Origin: a virus
Taxonomy: Duplodnaviria > Caudoviricetes
Reading direction: 5' to 3' (one strand)
IMG/VR virus record: IMGVR_UViG_3300025013_000109
Coordinates: 1-63,777 of that record
Length of the DNA stretch: 63,777 bases
The position numbers and the translations under genes were made by a program. The notes beneath the pieces were generated by a model. The model made no database searches. It was not told the DNA's origin and saw only the letters and a program-made list of their open reading frames with translations. This document shows positions 21,695 through 51,386 of this stretch, in pieces. Position 1 is the stretch's first letter. Each line of letters begins with the position of its first letter.

Positions 21695-21817
21695 ACTTTT
21701 TGTTTCGCTGGTGCATCCGTGCTGCCACCACGCCAGGTTTCAGTTTCCCTACTAACAGGCTTTTGTTTTTGTCGTGTTCCGGCATCCTGCCGGGGCTCTC
21801 ATTCCTTTAATTCCTTG

Positions 21818-21932
21818 GCACGTTAGCTGCTGCCGATGTTCACGTTCGAATTCGAAGGACCGTTGTTCGCATTCGCCGACCCGAGGGCGCAATTGCTACC
21901 GTTATTCAAGTTCGCCCCGAAAAGCACACCGC
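21818..21932 (-). repeat. DGR1 template repeat (TR1)
   Basis: 115 bp ungapped match to 22166..22280; 19 mismatches, all at TR adenines on the - strand; AAC/AAT-rich. Confidence 0.95.
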
Positions 21933-22115
21933 AGAGAATGAGCCGCCCAGCCCCACCCCTACCCTCCCCGCACTTCGACAAGCTCAGTGACCAGGAGGGA
22001 GGAAGAAAGGCTTCGTTTATCTTCATTTTAAAATTCAATTTCATTCAATTCACTTTTTTCAAGTTTTTCGCTTTGCCAGGACTTTCAATTTTGAGGAGCC
22101 CGGCTGCGGTTTCGG

Positions 22116-22133
22116 CCTCGCTGAAACGCGAGG
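22116..22133. promoter_or_regulatory. GC hairpin just downstream of VR1 (candidate DGR target-recognition stem-loop)
   Basis: cctcgc-tgaaac-gcgagg, 16 nt past the target stop codon. Confidence 0.55.
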
Positions 22134-22149
22134 ATTTTTCGACCCCGAT

Positions 22150-23445
22150 TTATCCGGACACGTTAGCACGGAAGCCGCCGCCGATGGACACGTTCGAACT
22201 CGAAGGACCGTAGAACGCACCCGCCGACCCGAGGGCGCAAGCGCTACCGTAAAGCAAGGACGCCCCGAAAAGCACACCGCGTCGCACAGTTCCAGAAGCT
22301 GGTAGGTTGGCGTTCCAATTGTAGGCGCAGCCATAGGTTGTTTCTCCAACTCCTGTATTTACATTTCCATAGAGTGTTCCCGGAAAAATTGTTTTTGCCC
22401 ATCCATCAGTTCGCGGAAGTTCTCCAATCAGTGTGTAAGCATTTTTAAATGCAAAACTGGCATCGCTGTGGTTAGCATCCAGAAGCGCATTGTTATAACA
22501 CACATAAAGAAATGTTTTGCCACCATCGGCAACTGATTGCATTTCGATATCGATTCCAGATATCCATGCCCATAAATTTCCCCACAATAAATTTTTACCC
22601 CGGTAAACCGGTACTTGTGTATTGTATGCCGGACTTGTAAATACGCGGGTGTATATGCCCGTCATGTAACCTTTGGTGTTTATTCCGGAAGTATTGGAAA
22701 GAGCTAACTGCGCTTCGAACATTTTAATTACCGGATAGTAACCGTTGTAGGTATTCCAGTCGGCGCTTGACCAGTTCGATGCTCCCGGTCCATTGGCCAC
22801 CTTTAAATTTTTAGTGCGGTATTCGATATACATCATACAAGCCAGGTACAGGCGGTCGAGATAAGTAAGCGCCAGCCAACTTGCACCCTTGGCTGCTGCT
22901 GCCGTTTCGTAGCCATAGCGCGAAATACTTGTGCGCGGATAGCCTAGACCCCCGGCTGTATTACCCGATCCGGAACCTGCAAAGTTTGCAGTTTCGTTGC
23001 GTATCGAGCGCGATTTGCCTGTAGTGCGGTCGATGGTACAATAATCGGGGCTATCGACAAAGCGTGGCATTTCAATAGCCACGTCGGCGCCATAAGTAAA
23101 TGGCTGTGCACATACAATCCAGCGTTCGTAAACCGGATCGGTGCCACCCAGTATCATCCAGCAGGCGGGGTTATCGATCATCACATCCAGCCCGTCGGAT
23201 CCGTCGAGAACCGAAGCTGATTCATCGGCGTTTTTGGTCCAGTCGGTAGGTTTCAGGTAATTCACAATCTGGCGGCTTTCGTTTACCTTACACGCCCTGA
23301 TCTGGTTGTGAAGTGGTAAACTGGCGTGTAAATCGGCATCGCCAATGAGGTATGGGAACGAGGGGTCGGAAACACTACGGAGCCGTTCGACCCCGTAGAT
23401 GCCTTGTCCCGCTTTCTTTTTTGCCAATATAGGGATGAGATCCAT
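22150..23445 (-). CDS. DGR1 target protein (C-type-lectin/FGE-like C-terminus), likely receptor-binding/tail protein
   Basis: NLLWGNLWAW motif and terminal VR ending GFR; start reassigned to ATG 23445, which overlaps the upstream stop (TAATG). Confidence 0.85.
   Translation of the reverse strand: MDLIPILAKKKAGQGIYGVERLRSVSDPSFPYLIGDADLHASLPLHNQIRACKVNESRQIVNYLKPTDWTKNADESASVLDGSDGLDVMIDNPACWMILGGTDPVYERWIVCAQPFTYGADVAIEMPRFVDSPDYCTIDRTTGKSRSIRNETANFAGSGSGNTAGGLGYPRTSISRYGYETAAAAKGASWLALTYLDRLYLACMMYIEYRTKNLKVANGPGASNWSSADWNTYNGYYPVIKMFEAQLALSNTSGINTKGYMTGIYTRVFTSPAYNTQVPVYRGKNLLWGNLWAWISGIDIEMQSVADGGKTFLYVCYNNALLDANHSDASFAFKNAYTLIGELPRTDGWAKTIFPGTLYGNVNTGVGETTYGCAYNWNANLPASGTVRRGVLFGASLLYGSACALGSAGAFYGPSSSNVSIGGGFRANVSG
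22166..22280 (-). repeat. DGR1 variable repeat (VR1)
   Basis: Encodes C-terminal RGVLFGASLLYGSACALGSAGAFYGPSSSNVSIGGGFRA of the target. Confidence 0.95.
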
Positions 23446-24344
23446 TACAGTTGGGTTAGGGTAAAAGTGAAATCGATGAACCCGCCCGAAGTTGGGGTGA
23501 ACGCTGTGAGGGTTTGAACCCGCAATTTCAGGTCTTTGCTGGCTGCATCGCACACATAGTTCCACACCGGCGAATTCTGTCCGAGAACTGAGGAACTACC
23601 GGCCAACAGCGAATTAAATTTCACGTCAATATAATGACGGCCATTGGTAATGTTTGCCGTGCTATTGGTCATGGCTACATTATCGCCAACAATTCCGGTT
23701 GGCTCGGTGCGGTAAAACCACAGCCTTAGCGTTGCATCGGCCAGGTTAAGCATATCGCTGGCTGCATCAATCTGCATCAGGTATCCACCACGCCCATTGG
23801 CTAAAGCCATATCGGGCAGATTAAGTGATACCGGGGCTCCAACGCTCGAATTGATTGCATCGTTGGCCGCATATTGAACGGTATCTGACGGACGTGTAAG
23901 CCTTACTTCGACAAACGCGGCCTTTGAGCTTGGCAGTGGCGCAGCGCGAAGCTGTGTGTCGGTTAAAGGGCCTGAGACTGGAACTGCGGAAGCACGAAGT
24001 TGGGTGTCGGTGACAGGTCCTGAGACTGGTAATGCGGTTGCACGAAGCTGGGCGTCGGTTAATGCACCGGTTACCGTAATGGCAGCTCCCGGATCTGCCC
24101 CGGGATCGAAAAAAGTAGCGGTAGCTGCATCAAGTTCAGCAAAATTGGCATAAGGAGAGCCATCGGCCTTTAAAAACTCACCAACCAATTTATTGGCAAT
24201 AAACTGTTTTCCATTTCCAGTCAGATAGATGTCAATCCTGGTGCGGTCGGCTGAAGGATCGATGCGAAATTTTCCGGACTGACAAGCACTGTCTGTGGTT
24301 CTGCCAAAGATGAACTTGCCGGATGTTTTTTCGAATATGTACAT
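23445..24344 (-). CDS. Putative virion protein with three 17-aa repeats
   Basis: V(T/S)G(A/P)(L/V)TD(A/T)QLRA repeated three times; first gene after a late-promoter motif. Confidence 0.65.
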   Translation of the reverse strand: MYIFEKTSGKFIFGRTTDSACQSGKFRIDPSADRTRIDIYLTGNGKQFIANKLVGEFLKADGSPYANFAELDAATATFFDPGADPGAAITVTGALTDAQLRATALPVSGPVTDTQLRASAVPVSGPLTDTQLRAAPLPSSKAAFVEVRLTRPSDTVQYAANDAINSSVGAPVSLNLPDMALANGRGGYLMQIDAASDMLNLADATLRLWFYRTEPTGIVGDNVAMTNSTANITNGRHYIDVKFNSLLAGSSSVLGQNSPVWNYVCDAASKDLKLRVQTLTAFTPTSGGFIDFTFTLTQL

Positions 24345-27071: not shown

Positions 27072-27970
27072 CCGGTTATTCCTCCAATAAAAAAGCCGTA
27101 AGCATCGCCATCGTCATCGGTAGCAGTGGCATTGTCAAAAGGGGCTTCGTAGGCGTTGTCGGCATAGGTTGTATAGGTATCGAGGTTATTTCGCAAATAC
27201 GAGAGCGCAACACTTAATGCGGTAAGATATTTATTGAGCAAAAACGAATGATCGCCCACCGGGTCTACTGATGCCTGAAAATGAATTTCTGCTTTTAGTG
27301 CCAATGCCTGCTGAATAAGCGGTTTAACAGCGATATCGTTTCCGTCACGTAATTCGGTCAGAAATTCGGCGCTGAATACGTTGGTAAACGTGGTTAGTTC
27401 CTCGAAGTTAATGTGCCTTTTTAGATCGACAAAGCGGCGACGACTGCAGCTGATATCAATGAACTGATCGAACACTGAAGCTGAAGGAATCAAACTTCCG
27501 GTATTGATGCAGGATTTGTTCCAGGAGCTATAAGTTGCCACATTTTGTTCGAGGTAATACAACAGCCGGTCTAAGCCATCGTTGGCAGCCTGGAGGCAGG
27601 AATCTTTCAGATCTCGGACGCGCTCCATGCTGGCAGGCGCCTGATTGGGATTACTGACGATGCCAAAACCTGATCCGGTGGCCACCAGGTTAAACTGCGG
27701 AATGCTTTCGAGAATGGTTAGGTTGGCCAGTACTGGTTTGAGCTTCAAGAGCAGCGATTCATAAATTTCAGATTCAGGATAGATAACCACGTCTGACCCA
27801 CCGTCCGAAACAAGGAGCAATCCTTCGTATAGTTGTTCAACCACTTCTTCGCCCAGGTATTTCGGCAGGTATTTAAAGAATGCCCGGATCTCGAATGGTT
27901 CGTATTTTGAGCCGTCGGTTATTGAATTTAGCGGCAAATATTCCTTGATGTTGTCGATGGTAAGTATCAT
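27068..27970 (-). CDS. Putative head-tail adaptor
   Basis: 300 aa directly after portal; GFGIVSNPNQAPASMERV motif. Confidence 0.6.
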   Translation of the reverse strand: MILTIDNIKEYLPLNSITDGSKYEPFEIRAFFKYLPKYLGEEVVEQLYEGLLLVSDGGSDVVIYPESEIYESLLLKLKPVLANLTILESIPQFNLVATGSGFGIVSNPNQAPASMERVRDLKDSCLQAANDGLDRLLYYLEQNVATYSSWNKSCINTGSLIPSASVFDQFIDISCSRRRFVDLKRHINFEELTTFTNVFSAEFLTELRDGNDIAVKPLIQQALALKAEIHFQASVDPVGDHSFLLNKYLTALSVALSYLRNNLDTYTTYADNAYEAPFDNATATDDDGDAYGFFIGGITG

Positions 27971-29373
27971 TTTGTTGGGTCGTTTACTTTAGTTACACTT
28001 CCGGTTTTATTGTTGTCGAGCGTGGTAAGCTCCAGGTTGGGGATTACAAAATGAAGATCGGCAGGCCACTTGTTAATTGATTTGATCAGGTAAAGCGGGC
28101 GAAGTATCCGGTCGCGGAATGGTTTCATGAGCGCCTGCTTAATGATGAACAGTTCGCGGGCTTCTGTTCCGTTAATGGTTTTATTTTTACCAGGCGATGG
28201 ACCTACCAGCGATGGTTGCGTTAGCATTCCGTAGGCAATCAGGTTCGATATTTCTTCCGAGTCTTCGATGTAGGCGCCATCTTTTATTTCATTTTTCACA
28301 ACCTCAATTTTGATCATGGGGTATGGCTGTCCCTGCGGGTCTTTTTTCTGGAAGGTGATAATCGATTTTCCGCTGTTCTCATTGCCCTTTATGAAATCAT
28401 TGATGTCTTTATATTCTTTTTTGATCCGGGCCTTTTGTTCTTTATCGGCGGTAATGCTCTCGCGACGGAATATTTCTTTGAAATAGTCCGGATCGAGCAG
28501 GATGATGTAATTGATCAATGCCTGATTTTTCATGATGGCATCCTTAAACGGGATAATCTTCATGGCAAAATCGTATAGGCCACCGGCAAAAATCGCATAC
28601 CAGTAGGGCTTCTGATAATAGTTGCGACCTGGTGAAGGGAAGTTTACCGGAACGATAAACCGGTTACGACGGGCTTTCACCGCTTTTTTTTCATCTTCCT
28701 TCATAAGTTCACGCAAATGGCGCAACGGGCTGTAATTATCGAGCACGTTGGTTGCAGTGCAGGGATATTCGTCGCCGGGCGTCTTCTCGCCCCAATAGGC
28801 AAAATAATAATGCCATTCAATCCGTCCGTTTTCTTTGTTCATTTCGCTCCAGCGCGAGAAACAAGCTTCTTTACTCCTAATCTCCACGATCTTTCTTTTT
28901 TCGCCATCCTCTGCATTGAAAATAATTTCGGGGAAACAATTGAAAAACCAATGCATGTCGCTCATTTGTTCGAGCAGGTATAATTGCATGTCGTTTTCTT
29001 CGAAAAAGCGATCAACCTCTGCATTCCCGATATAGGATTCAATCTTTTTTGTTTCGCCTTCACCTATAATTTTTACGGGTTTAATGCCGTCGCCGTAACT
29101 GAGCAATACGTTAAACCACAGATTGGCATTCATCTGTGCCAAAGTTCCGGCCTTCTCTATGATTTGTTTAGGCAAATCGTTGGTTGTTCCCCAGGGGACC
29201 ATTTTAGGCATATTATCTTTTTCGCGACCTTTTACCGCAATTTGGGAAGGATCCCGGTCGGGAGTTGAGAACATATTGGAAGAGTCGGATGTTTGCAAAA
29301 AAACGGCAGATGTACCCGTTGCATAAGCAGTGGTTCCGTCGTAATGCATGATTATTTCTTCCTTGTTTTTCAT
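27967..29373 (-). CDS. Portal protein
   Basis: 468 aa; VPWGTTNDLP, YYQKPYW, G.ENSGKS, GTEARELF patterns; position in head module. Confidence 0.75.
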   Translation of the reverse strand: MKNKEEIIMHYDGTTAYATGTSAVFLQTSDSSNMFSTPDRDPSQIAVKGREKDNMPKMVPWGTTNDLPKQIIEKAGTLAQMNANLWFNVLLSYGDGIKPVKIIGEGETKKIESYIGNAEVDRFFEENDMQLYLLEQMSDMHWFFNCFPEIIFNAEDGEKRKIVEIRSKEACFSRWSEMNKENGRIEWHYYFAYWGEKTPGDEYPCTATNVLDNYSPLRHLRELMKEDEKKAVKARRNRFIVPVNFPSPGRNYYQKPYWYAIFAGGLYDFAMKIIPFKDAIMKNQALINYIILLDPDYFKEIFRRESITADKEQKARIKKEYKDINDFIKGNENSGKSIITFQKKDPQGQPYPMIKIEVVKNEIKDGAYIEDSEEISNLIAYGMLTQPSLVGPSPGKNKTINGTEARELFIIKQALMKPFRDRILRPLYLIKSINKWPADLHFVIPNLELTTLDNNKTGSVTKVNDPTK

Positions 29374-29773: not shown

Positions 29774-30706
29774 TTAAGCTCTACCCCGTGGGGAGGGTTT
29801 GGGTGGGGCTGTGAGATATCCATTATAGTAATCTGAAATGTATTCCTGAAGGGCGGTTTTCCATGGGCGCATGTGATTCACTGCACGTAAATCGAGTTTA
29901 CGGGTTGATAAGCGTTCGGAGGCAGGGCGATCGGCAAAATAGGTTTGCTTAAAGTAGTCGGATGTTACCGGGGTAATTTTTACCTGATCGTGCAGCCCGG
30001 TTATTCTAAGCAGTTCCTGGGCCACTTCAAAGCGGCTGGTTTGGCCTCCGCACACACAATTATACAGGCCCCAGTATTCTTTTTCGAGCAATGCCCTTAC
30101 CGTCCTGGCAAAATCGTGCGTATAGGTTGGCGTGCCATCTTTATCGTTCACCACAAAAAGTTCTTTTTTGCCGTCCTTTAATTGATGCATTAGTTTTTGA
30201 ATGAATTTTTTATCTTTTTGCGGACCGGCGCCCATCATCCATCCGGCACGGCATACCAGGTAACGGGTTGCATTTTCGACCACAAAACGTTCGCCCATAT
30301 ATTTCGAGCGGGCATAAACCCCCAAAGGGTTCGGTGTGTCCCAGTCGTCGTACAATGCTTTTTGGCCATCAAATATTCCGGCAGTACTGATATACAGAAT
30401 TGGAATGTTTAATTGGTTGGCCAGGTAAACGGCATTTTCGACGCCCAATGTATTGGTGAGGTATGTTTCATCCGGATTGTGTTCACAGAATTCGAGATCG
30501 GTATATGCTCCCAAGTGAAAAAGATAATCGGCATTGAAATTGAAAACATCTTCACGATAGGCATTGAAATCGCGGAAATCGAGAAATGAAAGCCAATCGT
30601 CGTTCACATCTTTATCGGTACATTTCAGTATATAATCGGCGCTGAACTGTTTATAAAAGGCTTCGCCGAGCATTCCGCCACAACCGGCGATGTAGATTTT
30701 TTTCAT
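29774..30706 (-). CDS. rmlD: dTDP-4-dehydrorhamnose reductase-like SDR
   Basis: GCGGMLG, AYTDLE, YIST, YARSK, GTPTYT motifs. Confidence 0.8.
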   Translation of the reverse strand: MKKIYIAGCGGMLGEAFYKQFSADYILKCTDKDVNDDWLSFLDFRDFNAYREDVFNFNADYLFHLGAYTDLEFCEHNPDETYLTNTLGVENAVYLANQLNIPILYISTAGIFDGQKALYDDWDTPNPLGVYARSKYMGERFVVENATRYLVCRAGWMMGAGPQKDKKFIQKLMHQLKDGKKELFVVNDKDGTPTYTHDFARTVRALLEKEYWGLYNCVCGGQTSRFEVAQELLRITGLHDQVKITPVTSDYFKQTYFADRPASERLSTRKLDLRAVNHMRPWKTALQEYISDYYNGYLTAPPKPSPRGRA

Positions 30707-30787
30707 CTTAAACTATTTACAATTTAACTATTTACAATTTACTATTGAACCCCAATTGCGCTGATCAAGGCGCAAATAGTAAATTGT

Positions 30788-32668
30788 CTAATTGTCAATT
30801 TTTAATTCTTTCTTTTCCCTTGCCAAAAATTCGTGATAGCCTTCGGGGCGGCGGCCTTCTTTTTCGTAAACACGGTAACGGATTAAAACATCAGGAAGAT
30901 TGGCGATGATATAACCGGCTTTTAAAAACTTACACCACAGGTGATAATCTTCGGCCCATCCCTGTTTGGTGTAACCATAACCGCCGACTTTTAGCAGGGC
31001 AGCTTTTCGCATGGCAACGCCTGGGTGGTTGACAAACCAATGATTGGGCATGTTGGCAGCCAGTTGCCTGGTGACCCGTTCGGGGTGATGTGTAATGAGT
31101 TGTTTGGCGCCAAAAAACTGAAGCTGAACGCCGCAAACACTAATTTGAGGATTCTCAAACATAAAATTAACCAGGGTCGTGATGAGCCGGGTATTGGCAA
31201 TGTCGTCGTGATCCATCCGCACAATAATTTCACCACTGCAAAGCGATACGCCAACGTCGAGCACTTCTGAAAACTGAAGGGTATCATTGTCAACTTCGTG
31301 GTAAATCACAGGTCTTTCAGGATTTGTTTTTTGTTCGGCCAGTTTTTTAATTATGGATGATTTACTTAACCTGGAATCGTGATTGACAATGACCAGTTCC
31401 ATTTCTCCGGCATAGTTTTGCTTCAGTACACTGTCAATAGCCAATTCGATCCATTCTTCGTTTGGATCACGGGTTGGCATAAGGACACTTACTTTTTGAA
31501 AATCCGCGTTACGGGTTGCAGGTTGCGGGTTCGGGGTTCCGTTTAAGAATTTAAGAAATTCGATTTCCTGGTATTTTAAACTTCTGTTTTGGCAAATAAA
31601 CTTCCGGGCAGCATTGGCCAATTGCTTTATGTTCGTGGTATTCTTATAAAGTGAAGAAATAGCGGTGACAAATAGATGAATTTCCTGCTGAGTATAGCAG
31701 GGATCGGCAAATATTTCACGGGCTTCGTACCGCTGCCGGATTGAAATAACAATACCTCTTGAGGTAAGCACACCGGGGATATCTCCAACGCCAGGCATGA
31801 CACAACAAATACCGGCAGCCATCATTTCGAGCAGCGCAATTGGCAAACCTTCGGATGGTGAACAATTCAGGCCAAGATCAAAAGCCTGCATGGTTTGATA
31901 CACCTTCTCCATTTCAAGGTTACCCGTAATTTTAATAATTTTCCGGAGCCGAATGTCGCCTTGAATGTATGTGTTTACTTTTTTGAAATAATTCTGGCTT
32001 TGTATATTTTCTGAAGGACCGCCAACGATCAGTAATTTCGCATTTAGGGTTATGGGAAGCTGCCTGATTATTTTAAGGGCATCGAGAATATTTTTATCCT
32101 GGGCAACGCGCGTAATCATTCCTATTACAAAATCCTGACTGGTAAACCCGAAGCTTTTTCTAATCGAAGACCGGTTGATGTGTGATGCTTTATCAATCAG
32201 ATCAACATCGACACAGTTGGGTATGACCATAAATTTTCGGGCATCGATACCATCCCAACTGGTAAATGAATCCACTATTTTTTGATGAATGGCATAGTAC
32301 CCGTCGGTAAACTGATCATACTTTAGCACCTGCGCATAAATATGGTCGATTTGGGTATGCAAAATGGTTAAATACCTGAATCCAAGTTTTTGTTTTAACG
32401 ACGTTACAGCTGGCATCATGCCACCGGCATTGCAGTTAAAAACGACATCGCAACCAATCAAAAATGGTTCAATGATTTTACTTTCAGGACAGAGGCCAAC
32501 TACCACGATGCGTACACCTGCAGCTTTAATTAAATCGTAAAATTTACCGGTTGTACCACTGAGCACAATCACATCCAGGCCGTTTCGATATGCCATTAAA
32601 ACGTGGTGGTATGAAACGAATTCGGCACCGCCAATGTCGTTGGTGCCAATAAGAAAGGCTATTTTCAT
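30788..32668 (-). CDS. Bifunctional glycosyltransferase (GT4 + GT2)
   Basis: IGGAE and EGLPIALLEMMAAG (GT4); VSVLMP, RMDHDD, AEDYHLW (GT2). Confidence 0.9.
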   Translation of the reverse strand: MKIAFLIGTNDIGGAEFVSYHHVLMAYRNGLDVIVLSGTTGKFYDLIKAAGVRIVVVGLCPESKIIEPFLIGCDVVFNCNAGGMMPAVTSLKQKLGFRYLTILHTQIDHIYAQVLKYDQFTDGYYAIHQKIVDSFTSWDGIDARKFMVIPNCVDVDLIDKASHINRSSIRKSFGFTSQDFVIGMITRVAQDKNILDALKIIRQLPITLNAKLLIVGGPSENIQSQNYFKKVNTYIQGDIRLRKIIKITGNLEMEKVYQTMQAFDLGLNCSPSEGLPIALLEMMAAGICCVMPGVGDIPGVLTSRGIVISIRQRYEAREIFADPCYTQQEIHLFVTAISSLYKNTTNIKQLANAARKFICQNRSLKYQEIEFLKFLNGTPNPQPATRNADFQKVSVLMPTRDPNEEWIELAIDSVLKQNYAGEMELVIVNHDSRLSKSSIIKKLAEQKTNPERPVIYHEVDNDTLQFSEVLDVGVSLCSGEIIVRMDHDDIANTRLITTLVNFMFENPQISVCGVQLQFFGAKQLITHHPERVTRQLAANMPNHWFVNHPGVAMRKAALLKVGGYGYTKQGWAEDYHLWCKFLKAGYIIANLPDVLIRYRVYEKEGRRPEGYHEFLAREKKELKIDN

Positions 32669-32765
32669 AAATTCTGAAGTTTGATCAGATCAAATTTTCA
32701 GAATTTTAGCAGGCAGGGAAAGGACAGGAGAAGTGGTCAGTGGTCAGTCGCAGTTTTCAGTAAAA

Positions 32766-32921
32766 TCAATTTTCGGGTGGGGATAAAAGTTTTTCGAGTT
32801 CTTTTATTTTGCGTTTGATGCGGAGAAGTTGGTTTTTGGCCTGATCGAATTGAACCCGTGCAGCTTCCTCGAGATGACGGAGTTCAATGAGTTGTTGACG
32901 GATATCGGTTGCGCGTATCAT
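32766..32921 (-). CDS. Small coiled-coil protein behind a structured leader
   Basis: MIRATDIRQQLIELR..; follows the 32945..33043 hairpin. Confidence 0.5.
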   Translation of the reverse strand: MIRATDIRQQLIELRHLEEAARVQFDQAKNQLLRIKRKIKELEKLLSPPEN

Positions 32922-33178
32922 AAAAGCCCCTCCCATCTTAATTTGCACAACACTACCCTCAAGGATAAATGTATATAAGACAGAAAGGGCCAAAAGTGTG
33001 ACCCGTTCTGTCCTTGAGGGAATAATGGATAAAAGTGTTGTGCGGGGGTAAAGATAAAGAGATTTACAATTTATTCATTTACGATTTGCGATTTAGGTAG
33101 AAAAAAAGCCTCACATTTTTGCGAGGCATTCGTTCCATAGCTGCGGAGAGCTTATTCGATATCCTACTTTTTTTGTTT

Positions 33179-33925
33179 TTAAAATAATTTTAGCTGCTGT
33201 GTTTTGTTTTGAATAAGTAAATCGTCGAGAATATCTGTTTGTTCGGAAATTTCCGAAATTGTTACGGATTGCGGGTTGCGTGTTACATTTTTGGGCATTT
33301 TAAGTACGATTTGGCTTTCGGATTCGGTGATTGGTAAAATGTATAATCCTTTGCCGGTGGGATGAAGTTGCACCTGCCAAGCTCCGTAGAATTGATTTGA
33401 TAGTGAGTTCATCCAAGCTACTTCGCCAAACATTCCGTTCAGGCACATGTTTATCAGGCACATCATACAACAGTTACGGTCGATATCGGCTCCGTAAAAC
33501 AGTGCATTGCGGTTGATCTTAGCGGCTGCCATCAGTATGCGTCCACTTCCACAGGCGCAATCGAGAATGCGGTCGCCAAAGCTGATAGGATCATTAAGTA
33601 GTGCCATAAGGTCGCAAATTGGTTCGGGTGTGAAGAACTGTCCGTTATGTCCAAAGCTGATGTGCTCCATGAAGAAATCGCCAAATACATCGCGTAATCC
33701 TTCGCCGTTGTTATCCATTTCGATGACCAGTGCGCCAAATGCTTCTGTCATGAGGTAGGCTTCGGGTTTATCATATCCGCGTACTATTTCGAGGTACCGA
33801 TTTTCCATAGCTCCCAGCGACAGGGCGCAAACTGCCATTTCCAAGAAGTCGCTGAATACGTTACTGATGCTGTTCCGACGCGCCAACTGCTGCATGTACT
33901 GGGCAAAGCTTTTCTGTTTTTCCAT
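33179..33925 (-). CDS. N-6 DNA methylase-like (HsdM-like) protein
   Basis: GQFFTPEPI and ILDCACGSG SAM-binding motifs; no NPPY/F motif seen. Confidence 0.8.
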   Translation of the reverse strand: MEKQKSFAQYMQQLARRNSISNVFSDFLEMAVCALSLGAMENRYLEIVRGYDKPEAYLMTEAFGALVIEMDNNGEGLRDVFGDFFMEHISFGHNGQFFTPEPICDLMALLNDPISFGDRILDCACGSGRILMAAAKINRNALFYGADIDRNCCMMCLINMCLNGMFGEVAWMNSLSNQFYGAWQVQLHPTGKGLYILPITESESQIVLKMPKNVTRNPQSVTISEISEQTDILDDLLIQNKTQQLKLF

Positions 33926-33928
33926 GTC

Positions 33929-34108
33929 TCAGTCTTTTACAATTATTATCATTTTCCCGTTTTCGACTGTGACATGCACTGTTTGGTGTGGCTGAAACCC
34001 GGCATCGGCCAACCAGTTTCCTTTTAGTGTGAGTTTTGGCACCTGGTGGTAATTGTCGTGGTACTTGCCTTTTACATACTCGGGTTGAAGCTTAATCACT
34101 TTTGTCAT
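33929..34108 (-). CDS. symE: SymE-family (type I toxin-like, AbrB fold) protein
   Basis: PKLTLKGNWLADAGF..V.V.VENGKMII signature; likely start ATG 34108. Confidence 0.8.
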   Translation of the reverse strand: MTKVIKLQPEYVKGKYHDNYHQVPKLTLKGNWLADAGFQPHQTVHVTVENGKMIIIVKD

Positions 34109-34145
34109 TTGTTGTACCACTGCCCTGTGGATTTATGTAGGCTGG

Positions 34146-34333
34146 CTCTCCTGTTAATTTTGAGCCAACACTGAATTGAGCAGACCGGAATTAGTCAAGG
34201 GCCACTTCGACACGTTCGGTTCGACTGCTTCGCGCTCACCGACCGTCTCAGTGACCGATCGAAGTGAGCTTGTATTACCCTTTACTTTTCCGGGATGCGA
34301 TCAATACCTTCGGGGCAAAATTGAGTGAGAGAG
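34146..34333 (+). promoter_or_regulatory. Long imperfect hairpin, Frpo-like ssDNA promoter A
   Basis: Arms attgagcagaccgga..gtcaaggg and ccctttacttttccgggatgcgatcaat; unpaired TACCTTCG -7 box; REP elements in the loop. Confidence 0.65.
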
Positions 34334-34472
34334 AACCTTCTGTGATTTACGATTAGCCTATTTACTATTTACAATTTGGGGTTAACAATGTGGACACCTC
34401 TGGAAACAATGTGGACACCTCGGGGCACAAAAAAAGGAGGCGTGAGCCTCCTCAGATTTGAAGTTGAAACGA

Positions 34473-34646
34473 TTAACTTCCGTAACAACTGATGTAAGCG
34501 TTGTATTCGAAAGAAACGAGTTCTTTGTCAAGCAATTCGGCTGCTCCTTCGAAATAAACCGAATCGAGATAAGTAACGAAGGCTTCCCAAAGGTTGGTAC
34601 TGTTTTCCTGAACTTCTGCGGCTGATTTTAATCTGTAAGTTTTCAT
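34473..34646 (-). CDS. 57-aa protein (not in ORF track)
   Basis: MKTYRLKSAAEVQENSTNLWEAFVTYLDSVYFEGAAELLDKELVSFEYNAYISCYGS; own hairpin upstream and terminator (34427..34452) downstream. Confidence 0.65.
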   Translation of the reverse strand: MKTYRLKSAAEVQENSTNLWEAFVTYLDSVYFEGAAELLDKELVSFEYNAYISCYGS

Positions 34647-34647
34647 A

Positions 34648-34823
34648 CTGTAGTTTTGTTAAAAATTATATGCAGTTTTTCACGGTCAAACATCTGGGGT
34701 AAACAAAGAGGAACTGGAATAACGGATCGAAGTGAGTATATGCCGGGAAAATCCTTGTTTAGGTGAAACCCTTAGCCCAGGATATTGACCGTTTCTTAGC
34801 GTGTAATTTTGCTACAAAACCAG
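34648..34823 (+). promoter_or_regulatory. Hairpin, Frpo-like element B (second family)
   Basis: cacggtcaa/ttgaccgt and aaaattatatgc/gcgtgtaatttt pairing; TAATTTTG box; core shared with element C. Confidence 0.55.
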
Positions 34824-35040
34824 AGTGGAAACACCAAATGCAGAGAGCAGTGGGCGTTGAGAAAACAGCAACGCAGGGAAGCTCACCAACCTAAGATCGG
34901 TTTATGGGGCGGCTGGAATTGCCTGTAAATATGAGATTGCTTCCCGCTTCGTGCCTCGCGGTCGCAATGACGGCCCTTCGACTGGCTCAGGGATCCGGAG
35001 CGACATAAAAAAAAGCCTTTCGGCTTTTCTTGGGTTTCAG

Positions 35041-35352
35041 TTAAAATGGAAGGTCGTCTTCGGCGGGTTTTGCTTGTTTTTTTCGTGATGGCTTTTGTGC
35101 CTTTTTTTGTTCTTCAGGACCATAGGGCTGTGTTGGGATGGCTGCCGAAACTTTGGTCTGATAATAACAGGTGTGGGTGCGTCCGAATTTGTCTTCTTGT
35201 TTCAGTTTAGCCACTTCAAATGAGAGGTACTTTACTCCGTTCTTTTCGAACACGGCTTTTTCGAGGCCTTCAACTGGTAATACAATTCTCACGATGTCGA
35301 GGTTTTCTACCTGAGTTCCTTTTCCGATGTAATGTTTTTCAAAAGTTGCCAT
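35041..35352 (-). CDS. Small protein with SSB-like acidic tail
   Basis: Start MATFEKHYIGKG at 35352; ends EDDLPF. Confidence 0.7.
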   Translation of the reverse strand: MATFEKHYIGKGTQVENLDIVRIVLPVEGLEKAVFEKNGVKYLSFEVAKLKQEDKFGRTHTCYYQTKVSAAIPTQPYGPEEQKKAQKPSRKKQAKPAEDDLPF

Positions 35353-35530
35353 AATATTGAATTTAAGGTTATAAAAAAAATTTATACCGGGTGAACTTAT
35401 TCTGAATGAGGGTGGCAATGGAGGAACTGGAATACCGGAACGTAGCGAGGATATGCCGGGAAAATCCATTGACGGGAACCACCTTGAAAGAATACACCTT
35501 TGTATATAATTTTGACTAACACTCAATATT
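35353..35530 (+). promoter_or_regulatory. Hairpin, Frpo-like element C (second family)
   Basis: TTG-20 nt-TAATTTTG in the right arm; core gaggaactggaata..atatgccgggaaaatcc shared with B. Confidence 0.6.
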
Positions 35531-35927
35531 CTGTCAACCATAGAAAATTTGCACCGGCGAATGGGTACTAAGGTAAACCGGGAGATTGGGATAGTATTGT
35601 TGCCAGGTGATGGCCTGATCGTGTTCGGTAGAATATCGGTGAAGTAACTATTGAGGCTGTGCCAACGAAACGAAGATGACCGGCGGCCCACGTTAATCAG
35701 ACCATGGCGGCGACATCAACAGCATGGTGTCCGGAACAAAAACACAAAAGGAGCGAACAAGCATTCCGGAAGATGGCCTTACCAACTGAAACTAAATGAC
35801 GAAAGGCTTTTAGGGGAGCGGTGGTTCGACTGCTCGGTTCGATACGCTTCGCTACTCACCCACCATCGGTGAGTGCGACAATTTATGAGTTAGCGAATAA
35901 AAAAGGGGAGCGTTAGCTCCCCTTTGG

Positions 35928-36305
35928 TTAAAGATTGATCAGTTCTTCAACGTCGTGCACTTTCACGTCAAGTGTCCGTTTCATTTCGTCGATCACTGAG
36001 CTGATCACTGCCGAGTTTGAAGTTTTGAACTCGTTCCCGCTTGCATCCCGCAGACTAATCACAGAACTCAGCGAATCGGCCCCGATCTGGAAGGTCTGTA
36101 ACTTCCGGCGCGAATCGTTCAACGTTTTCCACCGGTCAATCAGCATCGACAAATCTTCCACCCGCTGGATGCGTTCTTCGAGGGTCATTTTACGAGCTGC
36201 TTCTTCAACTACGTCTTTCACAACTGTCATAGTTGGAGTAACTTCTACCACTTCAACAACTTCAGCAACACTGGCTGCTTTTTCGGCATTATTTGATTTA
36301 CCCAT
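35928..36305 (-). CDS. Hypothetical protein
   Basis: 125 aa ORF with hairpin upstream and terminator (35899..35926) downstream. Confidence 0.7.
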   Translation of the reverse strand: MGKSNNAEKAASVAEVVEVVEVTPTMTVVKDVVEEAARKMTLEERIQRVEDLSMLIDRWKTLNDSRRKLQTFQIGADSLSSVISLRDASGNEFKTSNSAVISSVIDEMKRTLDVKVHDVEELINL

Positions 36306-36357
36306 AACATTTTGCCCATGCCCTTGGGTCTTATTTTGGCATCTGGCTCGCCGGTTA

Positions 36358-36570
36358 AAATTAAATTACGGGTAGTATCCATTGAGCCGGGCGGAATCTA
36401 GTCAAGGGCGAATGTCAGGTTTAACGAGTTGCGGGTTTCGGGTTACGTGTTACGAGTTAAAGGTGACCGAGTGCGAAGCAAGGTTTAGTTATGTCTATAC
36501 CGCTAAACTAAACCACTAAACCTCCCTTTACTTTTCCGGGCGGCGATCAATAACTTTATCCGGAATTTGA
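36358..36570 (+). promoter_or_regulatory. Hairpin, Frpo-like element D
   Basis: attgagccgggcgga..gtcaaggg / ccctttacttttccgggcggcgatcaataacttta. Confidence 0.6.
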
Positions 36571-36648
36571 GTGTAACTACTTTCTCCGTCATCACCGGTA
36601 AGCCTGATTTTTAGAAACAACCAAAAAAAGGGGCGAAAGCCCCTTGAG

Positions 36649-36801
36649 TTACAATCCCGGATCAGCATCTGAATACCCATCGTAAACTTCACCGTAATAA
36701 TTAAGTTCATCATCCTGATTACAGATATCTTCATCTTCATGATAGGCTGAACATACTGTACAATCACCATCCGGACGGCAACAATTTGAATTTTGAAACA
36801 T
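36649..36801 (-). CDS. 50-aa acidic Cys-containing protein (not in ORF track)
   Basis: MFQNSNCCRPDGDCTVCSAYHEDEDICNQDDELNYYGEVYDGYSDADPGL; preceded by the repeated leader motif, followed by a terminator. Confidence 0.65.
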   Translation of the reverse strand: MFQNSNCCRPDGDCTVCSAYHEDEDICNQDDELNYYGEVYDGYSDADPGL

Positions 36802-36856
36802 AGTTTTTGCCGCTGCCCTGCGGACTTATAAAGGCATCTGGCACGCCTGGTTGTTT

Positions 36857-37342
36857 TTACTGAATGAAATTTTCCTGATTAGCAAACTTTGATTCCACTT
36901 GTTCGCATCCCCATGCATCGCGCATATCTTCCATCGACATGATTTTACCTGACTTCTTGAAATATTCTCCTTTGTGCCAGTACCATGCCGTTTTCGGATG
37001 TGAGAATCGGTAACCTTCGCCTTTCAAAGTTTCCCTTACTGCGAAGGTGTTTCCGGTAATCCAGATCCATGAGCCAATCAGTTCGATTGTAATATCTGGT
37101 AAGCAGATGATCCGATCAAGCCGCTCGCGCATTTCTTCTGAAACCTGCTGCTCATATTCCTTCCTTGCTTCCGAAAAATCAGTATTACTGTTGATAAGCT
37201 TTCTTGAAAGCCGGTCATACAAATCATTGATCACCTGCATGATTGCCGTATCACCACCTTTGTCCGGGTGATACAAGAAAGCAAGGCGACGGTACTCCTT
37301 GCGCAATTCATCCAACGTCTTAACACCTTCAAAAAATTTCAT
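36857..37342 (-). CDS. J-domain (DnaJ-like) protein
   Basis: LRKEYRRLAFLYHPDKGGD (HPD motif) plus C-terminal GSWIWITGNT domain. Confidence 0.88.
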   Translation of the reverse strand: MKFFEGVKTLDELRKEYRRLAFLYHPDKGGDTAIMQVINDLYDRLSRKLINSNTDFSEARKEYEQQVSEEMRERLDRIICLPDITIELIGSWIWITGNTFAVRETLKGEGYRFSHPKTAWYWHKGEYFKKSGKIMSMEDMRDAWGCEQVESKFANQENFIQ

Positions 37343-37379
37343 AGTTTTTACCGCTGCCCTGCGGATTTATGTAGGCTGG

Positions 37380-37569
37380 CTCTCCTGTTAATTTTGAGCC
37401 AGCACCAATTGAGCAGACCGGATTCTAGTCAAGGGCGAATGTCAGTTTCGAGGCACGCAGAAAGTGACCGAGCGCGAAGCGTTGTTTATGCAAATCACAT
37501 CCGGGAAGCACAAACCCTTTACTTTTCCGGGATGCGATCAATAACTTCGGGCCAAAATTGTAGGAGAGA
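37380..37569 (+). promoter_or_regulatory. Hairpin, Frpo-like element E
   Basis: ctctcct/aggagag, aattttgagcc/ggccaaaatt, attgagca/tgcgatcaat, gtcaaggg/ccctttac pairing; TAACTTCG in a bubble. Confidence 0.65.
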
Positions 37570-38161
37570 TAATACCTCTCTGCCTGAATAGGCGCTTAGT
37601 CGGCATTCTCTTTTGGTTCTTTTCTCTGATGCCGGGCGGAAAATCTAAGTAGCAAAATCAGAGAAAAGAACGGCGCAAAATTTTCAGGCCGTAGGTGGTC
37701 CCTGAAAATTCAGATCCCGAGTACTCGGGAGATGGCGCAAGGTTCTTTTTGCCCGCTTTTTCTTACAAGAAAAAGCGTAGAGAAAGTTCTGTGCTTAGAA
37801 TCAATCTAAATAGTATTGATTTTCGCATCTAAAAAAAAGCAAAAAACTAAAATTCAAATAAATAGGTATCTAAAAGGGTGGAAAAACACCCTTCTACTTA
37901 TAGTTAATCCCGAACCGCCCTGATCGTCTTTTGTGCGCACAAGGTCAAAAATGGCGTTATATGCTGAAAGTTGCATATGTTCTGTATAGTGGAGGCTCTA
38001 TCCAAAAACCCATCGCACGGACGAAGGTAGTGCGATACCGAATGTGTTTGAAAGCAAAAAACAGGTGAATGCGAAGCACATTCTCCTGTTGTGGGTAGTG
38101 GAACAATCATTCTGAATTGAATGAAAGGATGTAATGAAATTATGAATGTTTGTGTATCGGG

Positions 38162-39817
38162 CTATTGGTTAAACACCGTTGACATTGGTATTGATGTGAC
38201 TTGCCTTGGAAAGAAGTTCAATCCAATAAACAGATCATCCCATGCATCAGTACCGTCGGTACGAAGTTCGAGCGGATCATCTTCAGTCTCTCCAAGTTTC
38301 TCGCCAGCCTTATTCTTTTCAAAACCAGTACGGCCAATTCGGATCCCACACATCTCCATTGATGGAAGCAATGCCGGATTGTTCGCCCGGTTAAACTTTG
38401 GAAACAGATACTTCCGACCCTTAAGTGAATCATCTATAACCTGATGCTTTACTTTGTGTGTCCAGGTATTGCCGATATAAACCGGTTCAACACTCCAGCC
38501 ACGGCGCGACAGTTCTTCAACAACTATCTCCTGAAAGTTTGGTGCATCTTCATCAGCATAAGCGCCATCCAATGCAGTGGAGTTGTAATAGTAGATCACA
38601 TCCTTATTGCGGATGTACTGGTAGTAGTCGCACCAATCGCGGCAGAGTTCCCTGATCTTTCGGTTGAACTTCACATACTTGCTCGATAGGGTTTTCATAA
38701 CAGGCTCAGCACGTTGGCCTGTTATGATCCAATTGATGTTTGCATTATAGTCTAATGTAATGGCTAGTGGCACTGATGGATCAATGTCACCATCCTTCAG
38801 GCAATTGTCTTCAGCAATGCGGTCAAGGTCGAGTGTGCCTTTTGCGGTCCGGAGGTTATCCAGATAAGTAGTATTGTCGGCATCATAGTAATGCACTTCA
38901 GGTGTAAGATTAGGATAGAAACCATCAGTCAGTTTGCGTATCCGTTTGTTCATGATTGAAGTCATGAAGATGACCGGCGGCAAAATAAGTTTCTGCTTTT
39001 TAATGTATTCGATACCAACTATTTCAAGGTTTTCAATGGTGTCGTATTCTTTGTACAGGAAAGCGTTTTGCCTCAGGAAAAACAGTTCGTCGCGTTGCTG
39101 TTGCATTTTCCTGACAGCATTCGCGGGCATTTCAGGCATAAACCGGTATTTGTCTTTCAGGTAATTGATATGGGCAATCGTATTTTCAATGGCCTGTATC
39201 AATTCAGGGTCCATAAGCTTTTCCTGGTCAAGTATCCATTGACCTTCTTTACTGGTTGGCATATCCGAAACAATGGTATAGCCTTTCCATTTATGGCAAC
39301 TTTCGAAGCGAGGTTCTGTGCCCGACAATGTTGGCATAACTTCCTCAAAAAGTTTTTCCTTATTGATTGATCGTCCTTCGTCAATCTTTCCCCAATCAGT
39401 TGTTAATGAGTTGGCCGAAAACCTCACGTCCTGGCTTAATAAATAAACACAAGTTCCATTATAAAAATGTATTGCCTGGTCCCAACTAACAGGTTCAACT
39501 ATCGGAAGCTTAAAGTTCATCCATTTGGGAGCTTTGCGGCCAACAAAATAATGAACATCGCGCTGATATCCGTAACGTTTCAAAAAGGCAAGGGTGTGTG
39601 ATAATGTTTTACCAAGCAACTGTTTGAAGTTGCGCTGGTAAAGAAAACCTGATGAGCCTGGCATGTTTTGAATATCGTATAATAAATCAGGACCTTCAAT
39701 GCCGTCAGATTTTCCGAAACGGCGGGCGCCAACGATACATTTACTGTTTGGGCTGATCTCGTGCACGTACATTTGTGCCGGGTTGAAATACGCTTTCTTA
39801 TTCGCTTTCTTCTCCAT
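38162..39817 (-). CDS. terL: Terminase large subunit
   Basis: Walker A GARRFGKS, Walker B KIDE, C-terminal nuclease acidic residues (ITLDYN, TDGTDAWD). Confidence 0.85.
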   Translation of the reverse strand: MEKKANKKAYFNPAQMYVHEISPNSKCIVGARRFGKSDGIEGPDLLYDIQNMPGSSGFLYQRNFKQLLGKTLSHTLAFLKRYGYQRDVHYFVGRKAPKWMNFKLPIVEPVSWDQAIHFYNGTCVYLLSQDVRFSANSLTTDWGKIDEGRSINKEKLFEEVMPTLSGTEPRFESCHKWKGYTIVSDMPTSKEGQWILDQEKLMDPELIQAIENTIAHINYLKDKYRFMPEMPANAVRKMQQQRDELFFLRQNAFLYKEYDTIENLEIVGIEYIKKQKLILPPVIFMTSIMNKRIRKLTDGFYPNLTPEVHYYDADNTTYLDNLRTAKGTLDLDRIAEDNCLKDGDIDPSVPLAITLDYNANINWIITGQRAEPVMKTLSSKYVKFNRKIRELCRDWCDYYQYIRNKDVIYYYNSTALDGAYADEDAPNFQEIVVEELSRRGWSVEPVYIGNTWTHKVKHQVIDDSLKGRKYLFPKFNRANNPALLPSMEMCGIRIGRTGFEKNKAGEKLGETEDDPLELRTDGTDAWDDLFIGLNFFPRQVTSIPMSTVFNQ

Positions 39818-48455: not shown

Positions 48456-48674
48456 CTATACTCCTATCCGTATCGGTCTCCTGGGTACCGGATAAACAAA
48501 TACTGCCAGCGCTTCAGTTTTGTTATCCGCAATAGTCTGGCCGGTTACCTGGTACCACTGCCCATGCTGTTCGATGTATTGACCGTTCATGATCAGGCTG
48601 CATTCCTGGCTGAACAGGTAATTGCCCACGGTAGGTGCTAACTGTTCGTTGCTGGTGTAAAAATCTACTTTCAT
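48456..48674 (-). CDS. Hypothetical protein
   Basis: 72 aa, 4-bp overlap with the MTase stop. Confidence 0.6.
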   Translation of the reverse strand: MKVDFYTSNEQLAPTVGNYLFSQECSLIMNGQYIEQHGQWYQVTGQTIADNKTEALAVFVYPVPRRPIRIGV

Positions 48675-51364: not shown

Positions 51365-51386
51365 AATTTTTACGTTTTAGGTGAAA

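Follow-up and report, generated by a model that had tools for sequence, protein, structure and literature searches.

How is a row of small phage genes transcribed when each of them is set off from its neighbours by a terminator? The question is raised by the virus record IMGVR_UViG_3300025013_000109 (Duplodnaviria; Caudoviricetes), the whole of which, 63,777 nucleotides or 63.8 kb, is called the window here. In a gap between its large terminase and portal genes lies an island of five minus-strand units, each closed by its own intrinsic-terminator-like site; because each cassette is closed in this way, each needs a promoter of its own. The island is best explained as an array of five autonomous accessory cassettes, each made of a leader, one or two small genes and a terminator. 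Units 1, 2 and 5, together with one gene at 51.4 kb, are headed by members of a conserved leader family, 190–300 nt long and built of several helices. There is good support for the view that the cassettes are shared and exchangeable and that their structured leader is conserved. How the leader works is a more tentative matter: from motif, fold and context, we give a little less than an even chance to its being a Bacteroidota analogue of the Frpo/ssi promoters, which are read from single-stranded DNA (ssDNA), joined to a short hairpin in the 5′ untranslated region (UTR).

Read 5′ to 3′ on the coding strand, the leader opens with a ACTCTCACTCAATTTT-like stretch and C(A/G)AAG(T/G)TATT, followed by boxA, which ends ...CGCNNNCCGGAAAAGT(C/A)AAGG. 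A variable centre of 25–160 nt leads to boxB (CCCTTGACNAGAATCCNNNNNGCTCAAT), an imperfect inverted repeat of boxA, and then to a conserved AAAATTAACNGGNGAGCCAG. At the 3′ end stand an A-rich stretch and helix P5, a 4-bp hairpin with an AGGGCA loop that lies 8–9 nt before the ATG, a distance kept in 101 of the 117 distinct 3′ leader modules present in all DNA searched. Repeat search and alignment place leaders of about 230–280 nt in front of the genes for a J-domain protein, a protein of 125 amino acids (aa) and SymE, a 3′ fragment in front of the gene for a 50-aa protein, and a short form at 51512–51365. The unit-1 leader (37343–37575, minus strand; repeat families D1–D3, alignments A1/A2, pair counts, P5 scan and DNA folds) has, on the minus strand, boxA at 37531–37515, boxB at about 37436–37408 and P5 as CCGC-AGGGCA-GCGG at 37364–37351; on the plus strand a −7-like box, TAACTTCG, occupies 37542–37549, and CCCTTTAC, with TTT instead of TTG, stands at the −33 position (37515–37522). 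The leader of unit 2 (36306–36584, minus; repeat search, P5 scan, alignments and pair counts) has its plus-strand −7-like box, TAACTTTA, at 36551–36558 and its P5, CCCA-AGGGCA-TGGG, at 36328–36315, and that of unit 5 (34109–34340, minus; repeat search, P5 scan and alignment) has TACCTTCG at 34305–34312 (plus) and CCAC-AGGGCA-GTGG at 34130–34117. The short leader outside the island (51365–51512, minus; P5 scan, alignment, folds and motif scan) lies upstream of a 90-aa open reading frame (ORF) and a C5 methylase gene. It holds a strict antisense promoter from 51463 (plus), with TAACTTTG at 51487–51494 (plus), and an outer helix, GAAACTTAATT/AATTAAGTTTC, of 11–12 bp whose sequence is unlike the outer helix of the other leaders. 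A preliminary description of this DNA had given each unit its own hairpin; the hairpins are present, but they are part of this larger leader, which that description missed. Rfam gave no match at gathering score anywhere in the window, and at E ≤ 1 the region 32500–38300 held only a chance-level match to MicF, outside the leaders.

A promoter is found in the leader, on the strand opposite to the gene. The reverse complement of C(A/G)AAG(T/G)TATT is AATA-nn-TT(T/C)G, that is, TAnnTTTG, and the Bacteroidota promoter consensus, as worded in the accessible part of one paper, has TAnnTTTG at −7 and TTTG at −33 (PMC2483708); an identical −7 box is given elsewhere (PMC7641319). The two ‘n’ positions coincide exactly with variable columns of the alignment, and a TTG in the reverse complement of boxA (CCCTTGAC) stands 20 or 21 nt upstream of the −7 box. 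The usual spacing of Bacteroidota promoters is about 19–21 nt. All leader statistics refer to 77 distinct full leaders (alignment A2), in which the SymE type is represented by a homologous copy from locus L004. Of the 77, 64 have TTG-N20/21-TAnnTT(T/C)G at their 5′ edge, antisense to the gene, and 54 have the strict form, TTG-N19-21-TAnnTTTG, for which genome-wide motif density gives a chance expectation of 0.004 per window of search. The strict motif occurs nowhere on the coding strand of any of the 77 leaders, nor does TAnnTTTG occur in the last 110 nt before the ATG in any of them. To judge by these motifs, the canonical promoter in duplex DNA faces away from the gene, for which no separate promoter can be recognised and which has a terminator just upstream. 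In the SymE/SymR type I toxin–antitoxin system a cis-antisense SymR RNA covers the 5′ end of the SymE gene; for the SymE gene of the island, the sole promoter-like motif of the opposite strand lies about 200 nt upstream and faces away. It is because they carry an inverted host promoter that the hairpins resemble ssDNA promoters. Two other promoter designs were dropped. The reading of boxB as a sigma-70-type promoter (TTGACA) was rejected, as no conserved −10 box lies downstream, and an inverted-promoter design for the second leader type, D4 (units 3 and 4), suspected from a strict match at 35484 (plus), was given up when only 1 of 25 homologous upstream regions had such a match.

The helices are supported by covariation. 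RNAalifold recovered the boxA/boxB pairing and P5 from the 77-leader alignment. Standard pairs fill 88.2% of pair cells, against 81.1 ± 0.3 in shuffles (reached by 0 of 500) and 28.6–45.3% with slid partners, a figure that is flattered by the use of a nine-helix structure written from the first alignment row and that comes from related sequences. The compensatory counts per helix are more telling than this share: P2 has compensatory pairs in 3 of 3, P3 in 7 of 9 and P5 in 4 of 4. Overall, 19 of 49 pairs show changes on both sides (reached by 1 of 500 shuffles), and the cells so changed number 238, against 87 ± 10.6 in shuffles (0 of 500 reach this). One boxA/boxB pair, for example, is AU in 58 leaders, CG in 16 and GC in one. 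In helix P4 no pair has changed on both sides, and the helix is missing from leaders of the 125-aa type; it is treated as uncertain. Folding shows a slight preference for the antisense strand: in dinucleotide shuffles of the 5′ domain the z-score is −3.01 antisense and −2.69 sense, and the antisense value is lower in 49 of 76 cases (p 0.029). The short 51.4-kb leader forms a clean long hairpin, with z-scores of −4.45 and −4.46 on the two strands and no shuffle of 200 as good. On the antisense strand P2 reads GCGAAGC, which we take to be the exceptionally stable DNA mini-hairpin of that sequence. When the 64 leaders with the promoter motif were folded as antisense strands with DNA parameters, the TTG was fully paired in 60, and the −7 box was 69% unpaired, compared with 43% for the sequence overall.

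The leader is found in several kinds of mobile element. In the host assembly (4.99 Mb, 105 contigs) its profile gave 16 matches, on the contig that holds the window (C92) and on C9, C15, C21, C87, C94, C102 and C103. These other leader-bearing contigs are phage-like and share cargo with the window (identity of 87% for the J-domain protein, 85–86% for the 125-aa protein in C102 and C103, 76–78% for a DDLPF-tailed protein, 70% for an HsdM-like protein and 65% for a 57-aa protein), whereas their core genes are far less similar to those of the window (27.5% for terminase, 24.5% for portal). Either several related phages infect or lysogenise the host, or these contigs were binned together with it. 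Beyond the assembly, 7 of 80 IMG/VR loci fetched via the terminase had a leader match, the boxA pattern added 17 viral stretches, and a stricter pattern found at least 113 stretches in species-representative genomes; a search of phage DNA with the island as query gave no match. Among the matches listed, nearly all come from metagenome-assembled genomes of Prolixibacteraceae or unclassified Bacteroidales/Bacteroidia, to which Tangfeifania diversioriginum DSM 27063 is added. Behind the 117 modules stand 101 ORFs of at least 30 aa, which fall into a few clusters: RadC (38), J-domain (19), DUF6573 (17), the 125-aa protein (8), a 69-aa zinc-ribbon-like protein (5), a 135-aa protein (5) and SymE (4), followed by one pair and three singletons, of which one is YAcAr/SLOG.

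Both phages and conjugative elements carry the cassettes. One 7.2-Mb chromosome has four terminase homologues, and each of its nine leaders follows one of them on the same strand, 0.8–15 kb downstream. On three other chromosomes the leader and its cassettes lie in CTnDOT-type conjugative elements with no terminase homologue nearby; the cargo there is 69–73% (J-domain), 60–65% (HsdM-like) and 65–68% (DDLPF protein) identical to that of the window. Genes of these elements include a TraG P-loop protein (E 4e-141), TraM (9e-38), DUF4138/TraN (2e-53), TraJ, RteC (1.5e-65), YWFCY/TraG-D coupling proteins and PF03432 relaxases. Wherever cassettes and a relaxase or coupling-protein gene are both seen, they are co-oriented; the cassettes lie just upstream of the relaxase operon in one element, 7–20 kb downstream of the coupling protein in two, and upstream of RteC and the tra operon in one. 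The cargo pool common to phages, prophages and CTnDOT-type elements of Prolixibacteraceae comprises J-domain, RadC, DUF6573, 125-aa, SymE, YAcAr/SLOG and truncated HsdM-like proteins. The J-domain family reaches further still: the plasmid records with a relative number 2685, of which 2168 are typed as conjugative, as against 15 of 50,697 phage records. In the only such plasmid inspected, IncX4 plasmid L226 (NZ_LC511660.1), the relative is 27% identical across 77% of the query. It stands 3.5 kb upstream of taxA/taxC, as the first in a series of small unnamed genes that precede hicAB, taxA and taxC and share their orientation. The arrangement suggests a J-domain family that is widespread in the leading regions of conjugative plasmids. 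The island had earlier been likened to a conjugative leading region; as far as the leader and cassettes go, the likeness has partial support from homology and is not one of analogy alone, although the window itself is a phage. Homologues of island proteins do occur in CTnDOT-type elements and, for the J-domain protein, in conjugative-typed plasmids.

The proposal that the leader is an ssDNA promoter can be set out as follows. The 5′ two thirds would be a Frpo/ssi-like promoter, modified to suit the sigma factor of Bacteroidota, in the form of a long imperfect hairpin made of the boxA/boxB pairing, the inner helices P2 and P3 and the outer helix P0. The arm distal to the gene would bear TTG-N20/21-TAnnTTTG on the non-coding strand. 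When single-stranded, the template strand would fold on itself, the complement of boxA pairing with the complement of boxB, the TTG lying in a stem and the −7 box in an internal loop. In the folded state the arm with the promoter would act as non-template strand to the other arm, which runs on into the gene, and the promoter would now face the gene. Transcription is predicted to start near the 3′ arm of P0, at about 37396–37392 in unit 1 and about 51395–51391 in the short leader, and the last 60–75 nt would form a 5′ UTR with the AGGGCA-loop hairpin and, after it, an A-rich stretch of 8–9 nt before the AUG. The cargo would be made while the DNA is single-stranded, which would fit conjugative entry, and it would serve establishment or counter-defence; a single-stranded or extruded state in the phage is left unexplained by the proposal.

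ssDNA promoters are known from a few enterobacterial plasmids. In the Frpo/ssi operons of leading regions, as portrayed in the accessible text of two papers, large repeated stem-loops upstream of the genes reconstitute −35/−10 boxes; they fall into three sequence classes, and transcription starts were mapped by 5′ rapid amplification of cDNA ends (PMC12672017, PMC11541004). The leader family shares several traits with these. First, in F, ColIb-P9 and pESBL (classes 1–3) large imperfect hairpins likewise head small operons, made up of establishment or anti-defence genes, in one orientation, and intrastrand pairing alone makes the host promoter boxes usable (PMC11541004, PMC12672017, accessible text). 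Second, by motif and fold the host promoter boxes of the leader would be reconstituted by pairing of the template strand and would face the gene. Third, the cargo of the plasmid operons includes, in the same portions of those papers, genes for methyltransferase-like and toxin-like proteins and for tails like that of the ssDNA-binding protein SSB (PMC11541004, PMC12672017), and among the cassette genes there are partial counterparts, namely a methylase-like protein without its catalytic motif, SymE and an SSB-like DDLPF tail in the island, and RadC and YAcAr in sister cassettes, with no match to a known anti-defence family. The differences are also clear. The boxes are those of Bacteroidota (TTG and TAnnTTTG at −33/−7) and not −35/−10; two helices enclose the internal loop that holds the −7 box; and the elements that carry the leader are integrated conjugative elements and, unexpectedly, tailed phages.

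Searches for candidate ssDNA promoters have relied on the E. coli −35/−10 consensus, according to the accessible text of PMC11541004. In that text ‘Bacteroid’ occurs 0 times, and its main part is without DnaJ, RadC or SymE, though supplementary family tables may list J-domain or RadC proteins. Literature searches on ssDNA promoters in conjugative leading regions returned plasmid work only; those on Frpo in Bacteroidota and on Frpo-type hairpin promoters in phages returned nothing relevant, that on ssDNA promoters of integrative and conjugative elements found no paper, and that on the direction of CTnDOT transfer gave nothing usable. Within the limits of the literature searched, no prior description was found of this leader family, of a −33/−7-type ssDNA promoter or of such elements in phages. 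If the proposal of an ssDNA promoter is right, the mechanism would extend to another phylum and to integrated conjugative elements, in more than 100 copies with strong covariation and a perfectly placed Bacteroidota promoter on the opposite strand, and the role of such an element in a tailed phage would become the question.

One answer to that question would be that tailed phages of Bacteroidota adopted the hairpin promoters of conjugative elements, which are active only on single-stranded or extruded DNA, as a way to time a shared and freely exchanged pool of establishment and counter-defence genes; we regard this as doubtful. On that view ssDNA-gated transcription would be general to mobile elements beyond proteobacterial plasmids; it would use the unusual −33/−7 promoter of Bacteroidota and would also occur in viruses that inject duplex DNA. 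There is a parallel in phage N4, a double-stranded phage whose early genes are read from extruded template-strand hairpin promoters with the aid of SSB. In N4 a virion RNA polymerase reads small hairpins, with a stem of 5–7 bp and a loop of 3 nt; the boxes of the leader match the host sigma factor instead, and no virion RNA polymerase was seen.

A number of observations weigh against the ssDNA promoter. The window is a tailed phage whose DNA enters as a duplex, all nine leaders of the complete 7.2-Mb chromosome lie in prophages, and in two of the conjugative elements the cassettes are 20–35 kb from the likely oriT. In the antisense folds the −7 box is unpaired at six or more of seven positions in only 25 of 64, and P0 is predicted in only 24 of 64. 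The three island leaders of this family have weakened boxes (TTT for TTG, and TTCG or TTTA in the −7 box). That of unit 1, where boxA/boxB contains an A.G mismatch, is hardly more stable than its shuffles (z-scores of −1.44 and −1.15). The sequence of boxA and boxB is conserved far beyond what a promoter spacer needs, and another factor probably binds them. Finally, the wobble pairs are mixed in their asymmetry. P0, with 22 A.C to 6 G.T, favours the antisense strand, but G.T exceeds A.C in P3 (28 to 10) and in P5 (7 to 2), which favours the coding strand; P4 is balanced (35 to 36), and its wobble pattern would place P4 inside the RNA, in conflict with the predicted start.

These wobble pairs bear on an alternative, in which transcription takes in the entire leader, which then acts as a structured 5′ UTR and cis-regulatory RNA, and an RNA of its own, divergent or antisense, comes from the antisense promoter. 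Such a leader might be a translational-repressor site, a stability element or a device for processive antitermination past the cassette terminators. We think this unlikely, though by no means negligible. The coding-strand excess of G.T in P3 and P5 is what it would lead one to expect, as are the 11 T.G/G.T to 2 C.A pairs among the 117 P5 hairpins and the variation of P4 mainly by coding-strand U.G (33 cells). So is the fixed place of P5 before the start codon, followed as it is by an A-rich stretch like TAAAA, which the accessible part of PMC2483708 gives as the ribosome-binding consensus, and the element is well kept in double-stranded phages. A hairpin P5 in the RNA fits the ssDNA promoter equally, whereas the coding-strand preference of P3 sits better with an RNA leader. 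What an RNA leader lacks is a canonical coding-strand promoter, found in none of the 77 leaders, and conservation fades upstream of the leader, at the terminator of the preceding cassette. It also leaves the exact conservation of TA-nn-TTTG on the opposite strand unexplained, and no Rfam family matches. Folds with RNA parameters favour the antisense strand (the sense strand is the more stable in only 19 of 77, and for the P3 domain in 11 against 44), a comparison confounded by the A+C-rich composition of the coding strand and not used as proof.

If the ssDNA promoter concerns how the cassettes are expressed, a second body of evidence concerns how they move. Contigs (not reads) of four metagenome runs were compared over 32000–39000, and they are few in number. 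One carries 2368 extra nt exactly at 34318|34319, within CAATT|TTG, at the 5′ edge of the unit-5 leader. In a second run contigs diverge at this same position, and one of them continues into an alternative 5′ flank known from other leaders. Cassette borders are also close to the remaining loose contig ends: those at 33061/33094 follow directly on the last terminator, those at 35444/35475 fall within the second leader type, and one more is at 37376. Within a cassette, too, genes are replaced: behind one leader type, the gene that precedes the HsdM-like gene is SymE in the window (33929–34108) and a RadC JAB-domain gene in C103 (16712–17185) and in locus L218 (18804–19343), a clean single-gene exchange that points to mobility.

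From this it could be argued that the main function of the leader is recombination, by which cassettes pass between phages and conjugative elements, whether through homologous exchange between regulatory repeats, at a folded single-strand site like attC or by means of an invertible promoter switch. The breakpoints near cassette borders are in keeping with this, as are the swap of the first gene while the HsdM-like second gene is kept and the contrast between cargo (65–90% identical between phage contigs) and terminase or portal (24–27%). The 51.4-kb copy, moreover, resembles an inverton in the OFF state, with perfect inverted repeats of 11–12 bp around an outward-facing promoter. However, the cassettes have no recombinase linked to them (the one integrase seen belongs to the phage and lies about 32 kb away, at 1–1149), the outer repeat of most leaders is only 6–7 AT-rich bp, and recombination alone leaves the covariation of P2, P3 and P5 and the fixed distance to the start codon unexplained. 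No flipped copy was found either: none of 20 upstream regions without boxA has a reverse-complement boxA or boxB pattern, and a pattern scan for flipped leaders in all DNA searched gave one match, a normal leader read from the other strand, in assemblies that show the majority state only. As the main function of the leader, recombination is in our judgement quite improbable. It is compatible with an ssDNA promoter, the two not being exclusive.

Two kinds of known system come close to such a recombination element. In T4-type phages, promoter-stem-loop (PeSL) cassettes have regulatory repeats flanking small accessory ORFs, a hyperplastic region and modular shuffling, in the accessible text of two papers (PMC2839356, PMC4122927). 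The likeness to PeSL lies in the regulatory repeats that flank small accessory phage ORFs. The PeSL elements are short early promoters with a terminator and are active as duplex, whereas the leaders are 190–300 nt with several covarying helices, their promoter faces away from the gene, and the family is common to conjugative elements. The other kind comprises integron attC sites, where imperfect inverted repeats with a variable centre stand by promoterless cassettes, and the invertible promoters of Bacteroidales, where an outward promoter lies between repeats. Unlike these, the leader has no integron integrase or invertase nearby and is tied to its downstream gene by the fixed AUG distance.

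The plainest account would be that the cassettes are ordinary phage morons and the repeats REP-like host intergenic repeats with no specific function. GC-rich palindromic units of the apical parts of the leader do recur elsewhere in the intergenic DNA of the island. An ordered multi-helix architecture is nevertheless kept over 77 distinct copies with compensatory changes, and the copies in the host assembly are all on phage-like contigs beside the same gene families, so that we consider this account very improbable. The leader family can serve as a marker for early or establishment genes in Bacteroidota mobile elements, and it reveals a common pool of cassettes traded between phages and conjugative elements. 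The genes so marked include uncharacterised conserved proteins, namely the DDLPF-tailed, 125-aa, Cys4 acidic, DUF6573 and truncated HsdM-like proteins.

The island itself is somewhat larger than the span 33179–37342 given at first, since it takes in the unit-1 leader, as far as about 37575, and the last terminator, whose end is at 33108. That five units lie between terminase and portal, with their own terminators and the genes named for them, was borne out by ORFs, family matches and a terminator scan; the scan listed 15 sites for the region (shuffles gave 6.0 ± 2.5), and five minus-strand sites trail the five units. Unit 1 encodes the J-domain protein (36857–37342, minus, 161 aa), which has HPD inside ‘...LYHPDKGGD’ and matches phrog_15863 (E 1.6e-35); its score against Pfam DnaJ (E 3e-6, 27.7 bits) is just under the cut-off of 27.8, and its relatives carry the annotation J domain-containing. 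After it come a short 3′ leader module (repeat D5 and P5 scan; P5 hairpin at 36823–36810) and the gene for the 50-aa acidic Cys4 protein (36801–36649), which together occupy 36649–36856 (minus), and then the terminator (36628–36645, minus). The 50-aa protein has 13 D/E and 1 R, with a net charge of about −12, and in 7 distinct homologues from the DNA searched four Cys are conserved and the end YSDADPGL is invariant; only one cluster is present in a collection of 5.8 billion proteins. It is a rare yet real conserved protein. It had been suggested as a DNA mimic; its conserved features speak for metal binding at least as strongly.

Behind the unit-2 leader lies the gene for the 125-aa, coiled-coil-like protein (35928–36305, minus; phrog_19224, E 1.7e-5), with its terminator at 35902–35925 (minus). 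Unit 3 is preceded by the second leader type (35353–35540, minus; repeat search), which contains repeat D4 at 35467–35421. Its DDLPF-tailed protein (35041–35352, minus) starts at the ATG at 35352, not 35343, which makes it 103 aa long. None of the 186 members of this family has a functional name or a Pfam domain; alignment A3 shows a conserved N-terminal domain of about 68 aa, a charged K/E/Q-rich linker and an invariant (E/D)DDLPF end, a layout and tip that we take to be those of bacterial SSB. AlphaFold2 on 29 sequences gave a mean pLDDT of 53 and a pTM of 0.21, too poor for a fold search. The terminator of unit 3 (35011–35028, minus; terminator scan and sequence) is palindromic and is listed by the scan on the plus strand. 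Unit 4 (34473–34754, minus; ORFs, repeat and motif scans) has a D4 copy at 34754–34708, a coding-strand promoter-like TTG-N18-TAATTTTT from 34689 and the 57-aa gene at 34646–34473, with a terminator at 34434–34453 (minus).

In unit 5 the SymE-family protein (33929–34108, minus; PF08845, E 7.3e-14) most likely starts at the ATG at 34108, which fits the spacing from P5 to the gene and gives a protein of 59 aa. The HsdM-like protein (33179–33925, minus, 248 aa) matches N6_Mtase (E 1.2e-11) over positions 6–117 of the 311-position profile only and aligns to the type I methyltransferase 3lkd_A only at residues 184–282, a section that opens with the FxTP motif and closes shortly after the SAM-binding motif. 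It has SAM-binding motif I (DCACGSG) and, over the whole sequence, neither NPP[FYW] (motif IV) nor any PP dipeptide. Because the NPP[FYW] motif is missing, methylation is unlikely; a SAM-binding or subunit-decoy role is our guess. The unit ends in a terminator at 33108–33127 (minus). The island had been proposed to consist of immediately expressed anti-defence genes; on the island, PADLOC methyltransferase models matched only the methyltransferase-like domain, and PADLOC found no other defence or anti-defence family.

The surroundings of the island fit a phage. The large terminase homologue (38162..39817, minus, 551 aa), which forms the upstream border of the accessory gap, was found by tblastn against annotated terminase large subunits (32% identity, E 2e-77), and the portal homologue (27967..29373, minus, 468 aa), at the downstream border, by comparison with annotated portal proteins (28.6% identity, E 1e-45); neither has a Pfam or PHROGs match. 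The minus strand carries the genes of the window, with one notable exception, a tyrosine integrase gene on the plus strand (1–1149; phrog_1, E 1.9e-41). With its terminase, portal, tail protein phrog_5302, reverse transcriptase and integrase phrog_1, the window is by gene content a phage or prophage. Since its contig runs 22 kb and 74 kb past the window edges, it is probably an integrated prophage, and a host among Prolixibacteraceae-type Bacteroidota is the best explanation. The gap of 8.8 kb holds, besides the five units, a 75-aa ORF, a 626-aa double glycosyltransferase and an RmlD-like reductase. The last two, at 29774–32668, are a fusion of GT4 and GT2 and a reductase with E 8.5e-56, and they look like moron genes that modify surface sugars.

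Other features of the window stand apart from the cassettes. At 20714–23565 a reverse transcriptase (RVT_1, E 4.6e-15, 326 aa) adjoins the tail protein (phrog_5302, E 1.4e-48), which suggests a diversity-generating retroelement. An AT-rich non-coding stretch at 51700–52300, between the short leader and a 1311-aa primase (DnaG zinc ribbon, Toprim and DnaB-binding domains), contains short tandem repeats, namely GGGTCACGCT-like units and three copies of GTTCCCGC, and is a candidate replication origin or early control region. Between the unit-4 terminator and the unit-5 leader, at 34384–34425, lie two tandem 21-nt copies (AACAATGTGGACACCTC...) of repeat family D8. The operon headed by the short leader (48671–51364) runs into the gene for a 594-aa C5 cytosine methylase (PF00145, E 6e-28), an orphan-methylase arrangement that resembles those reported for leading regions.

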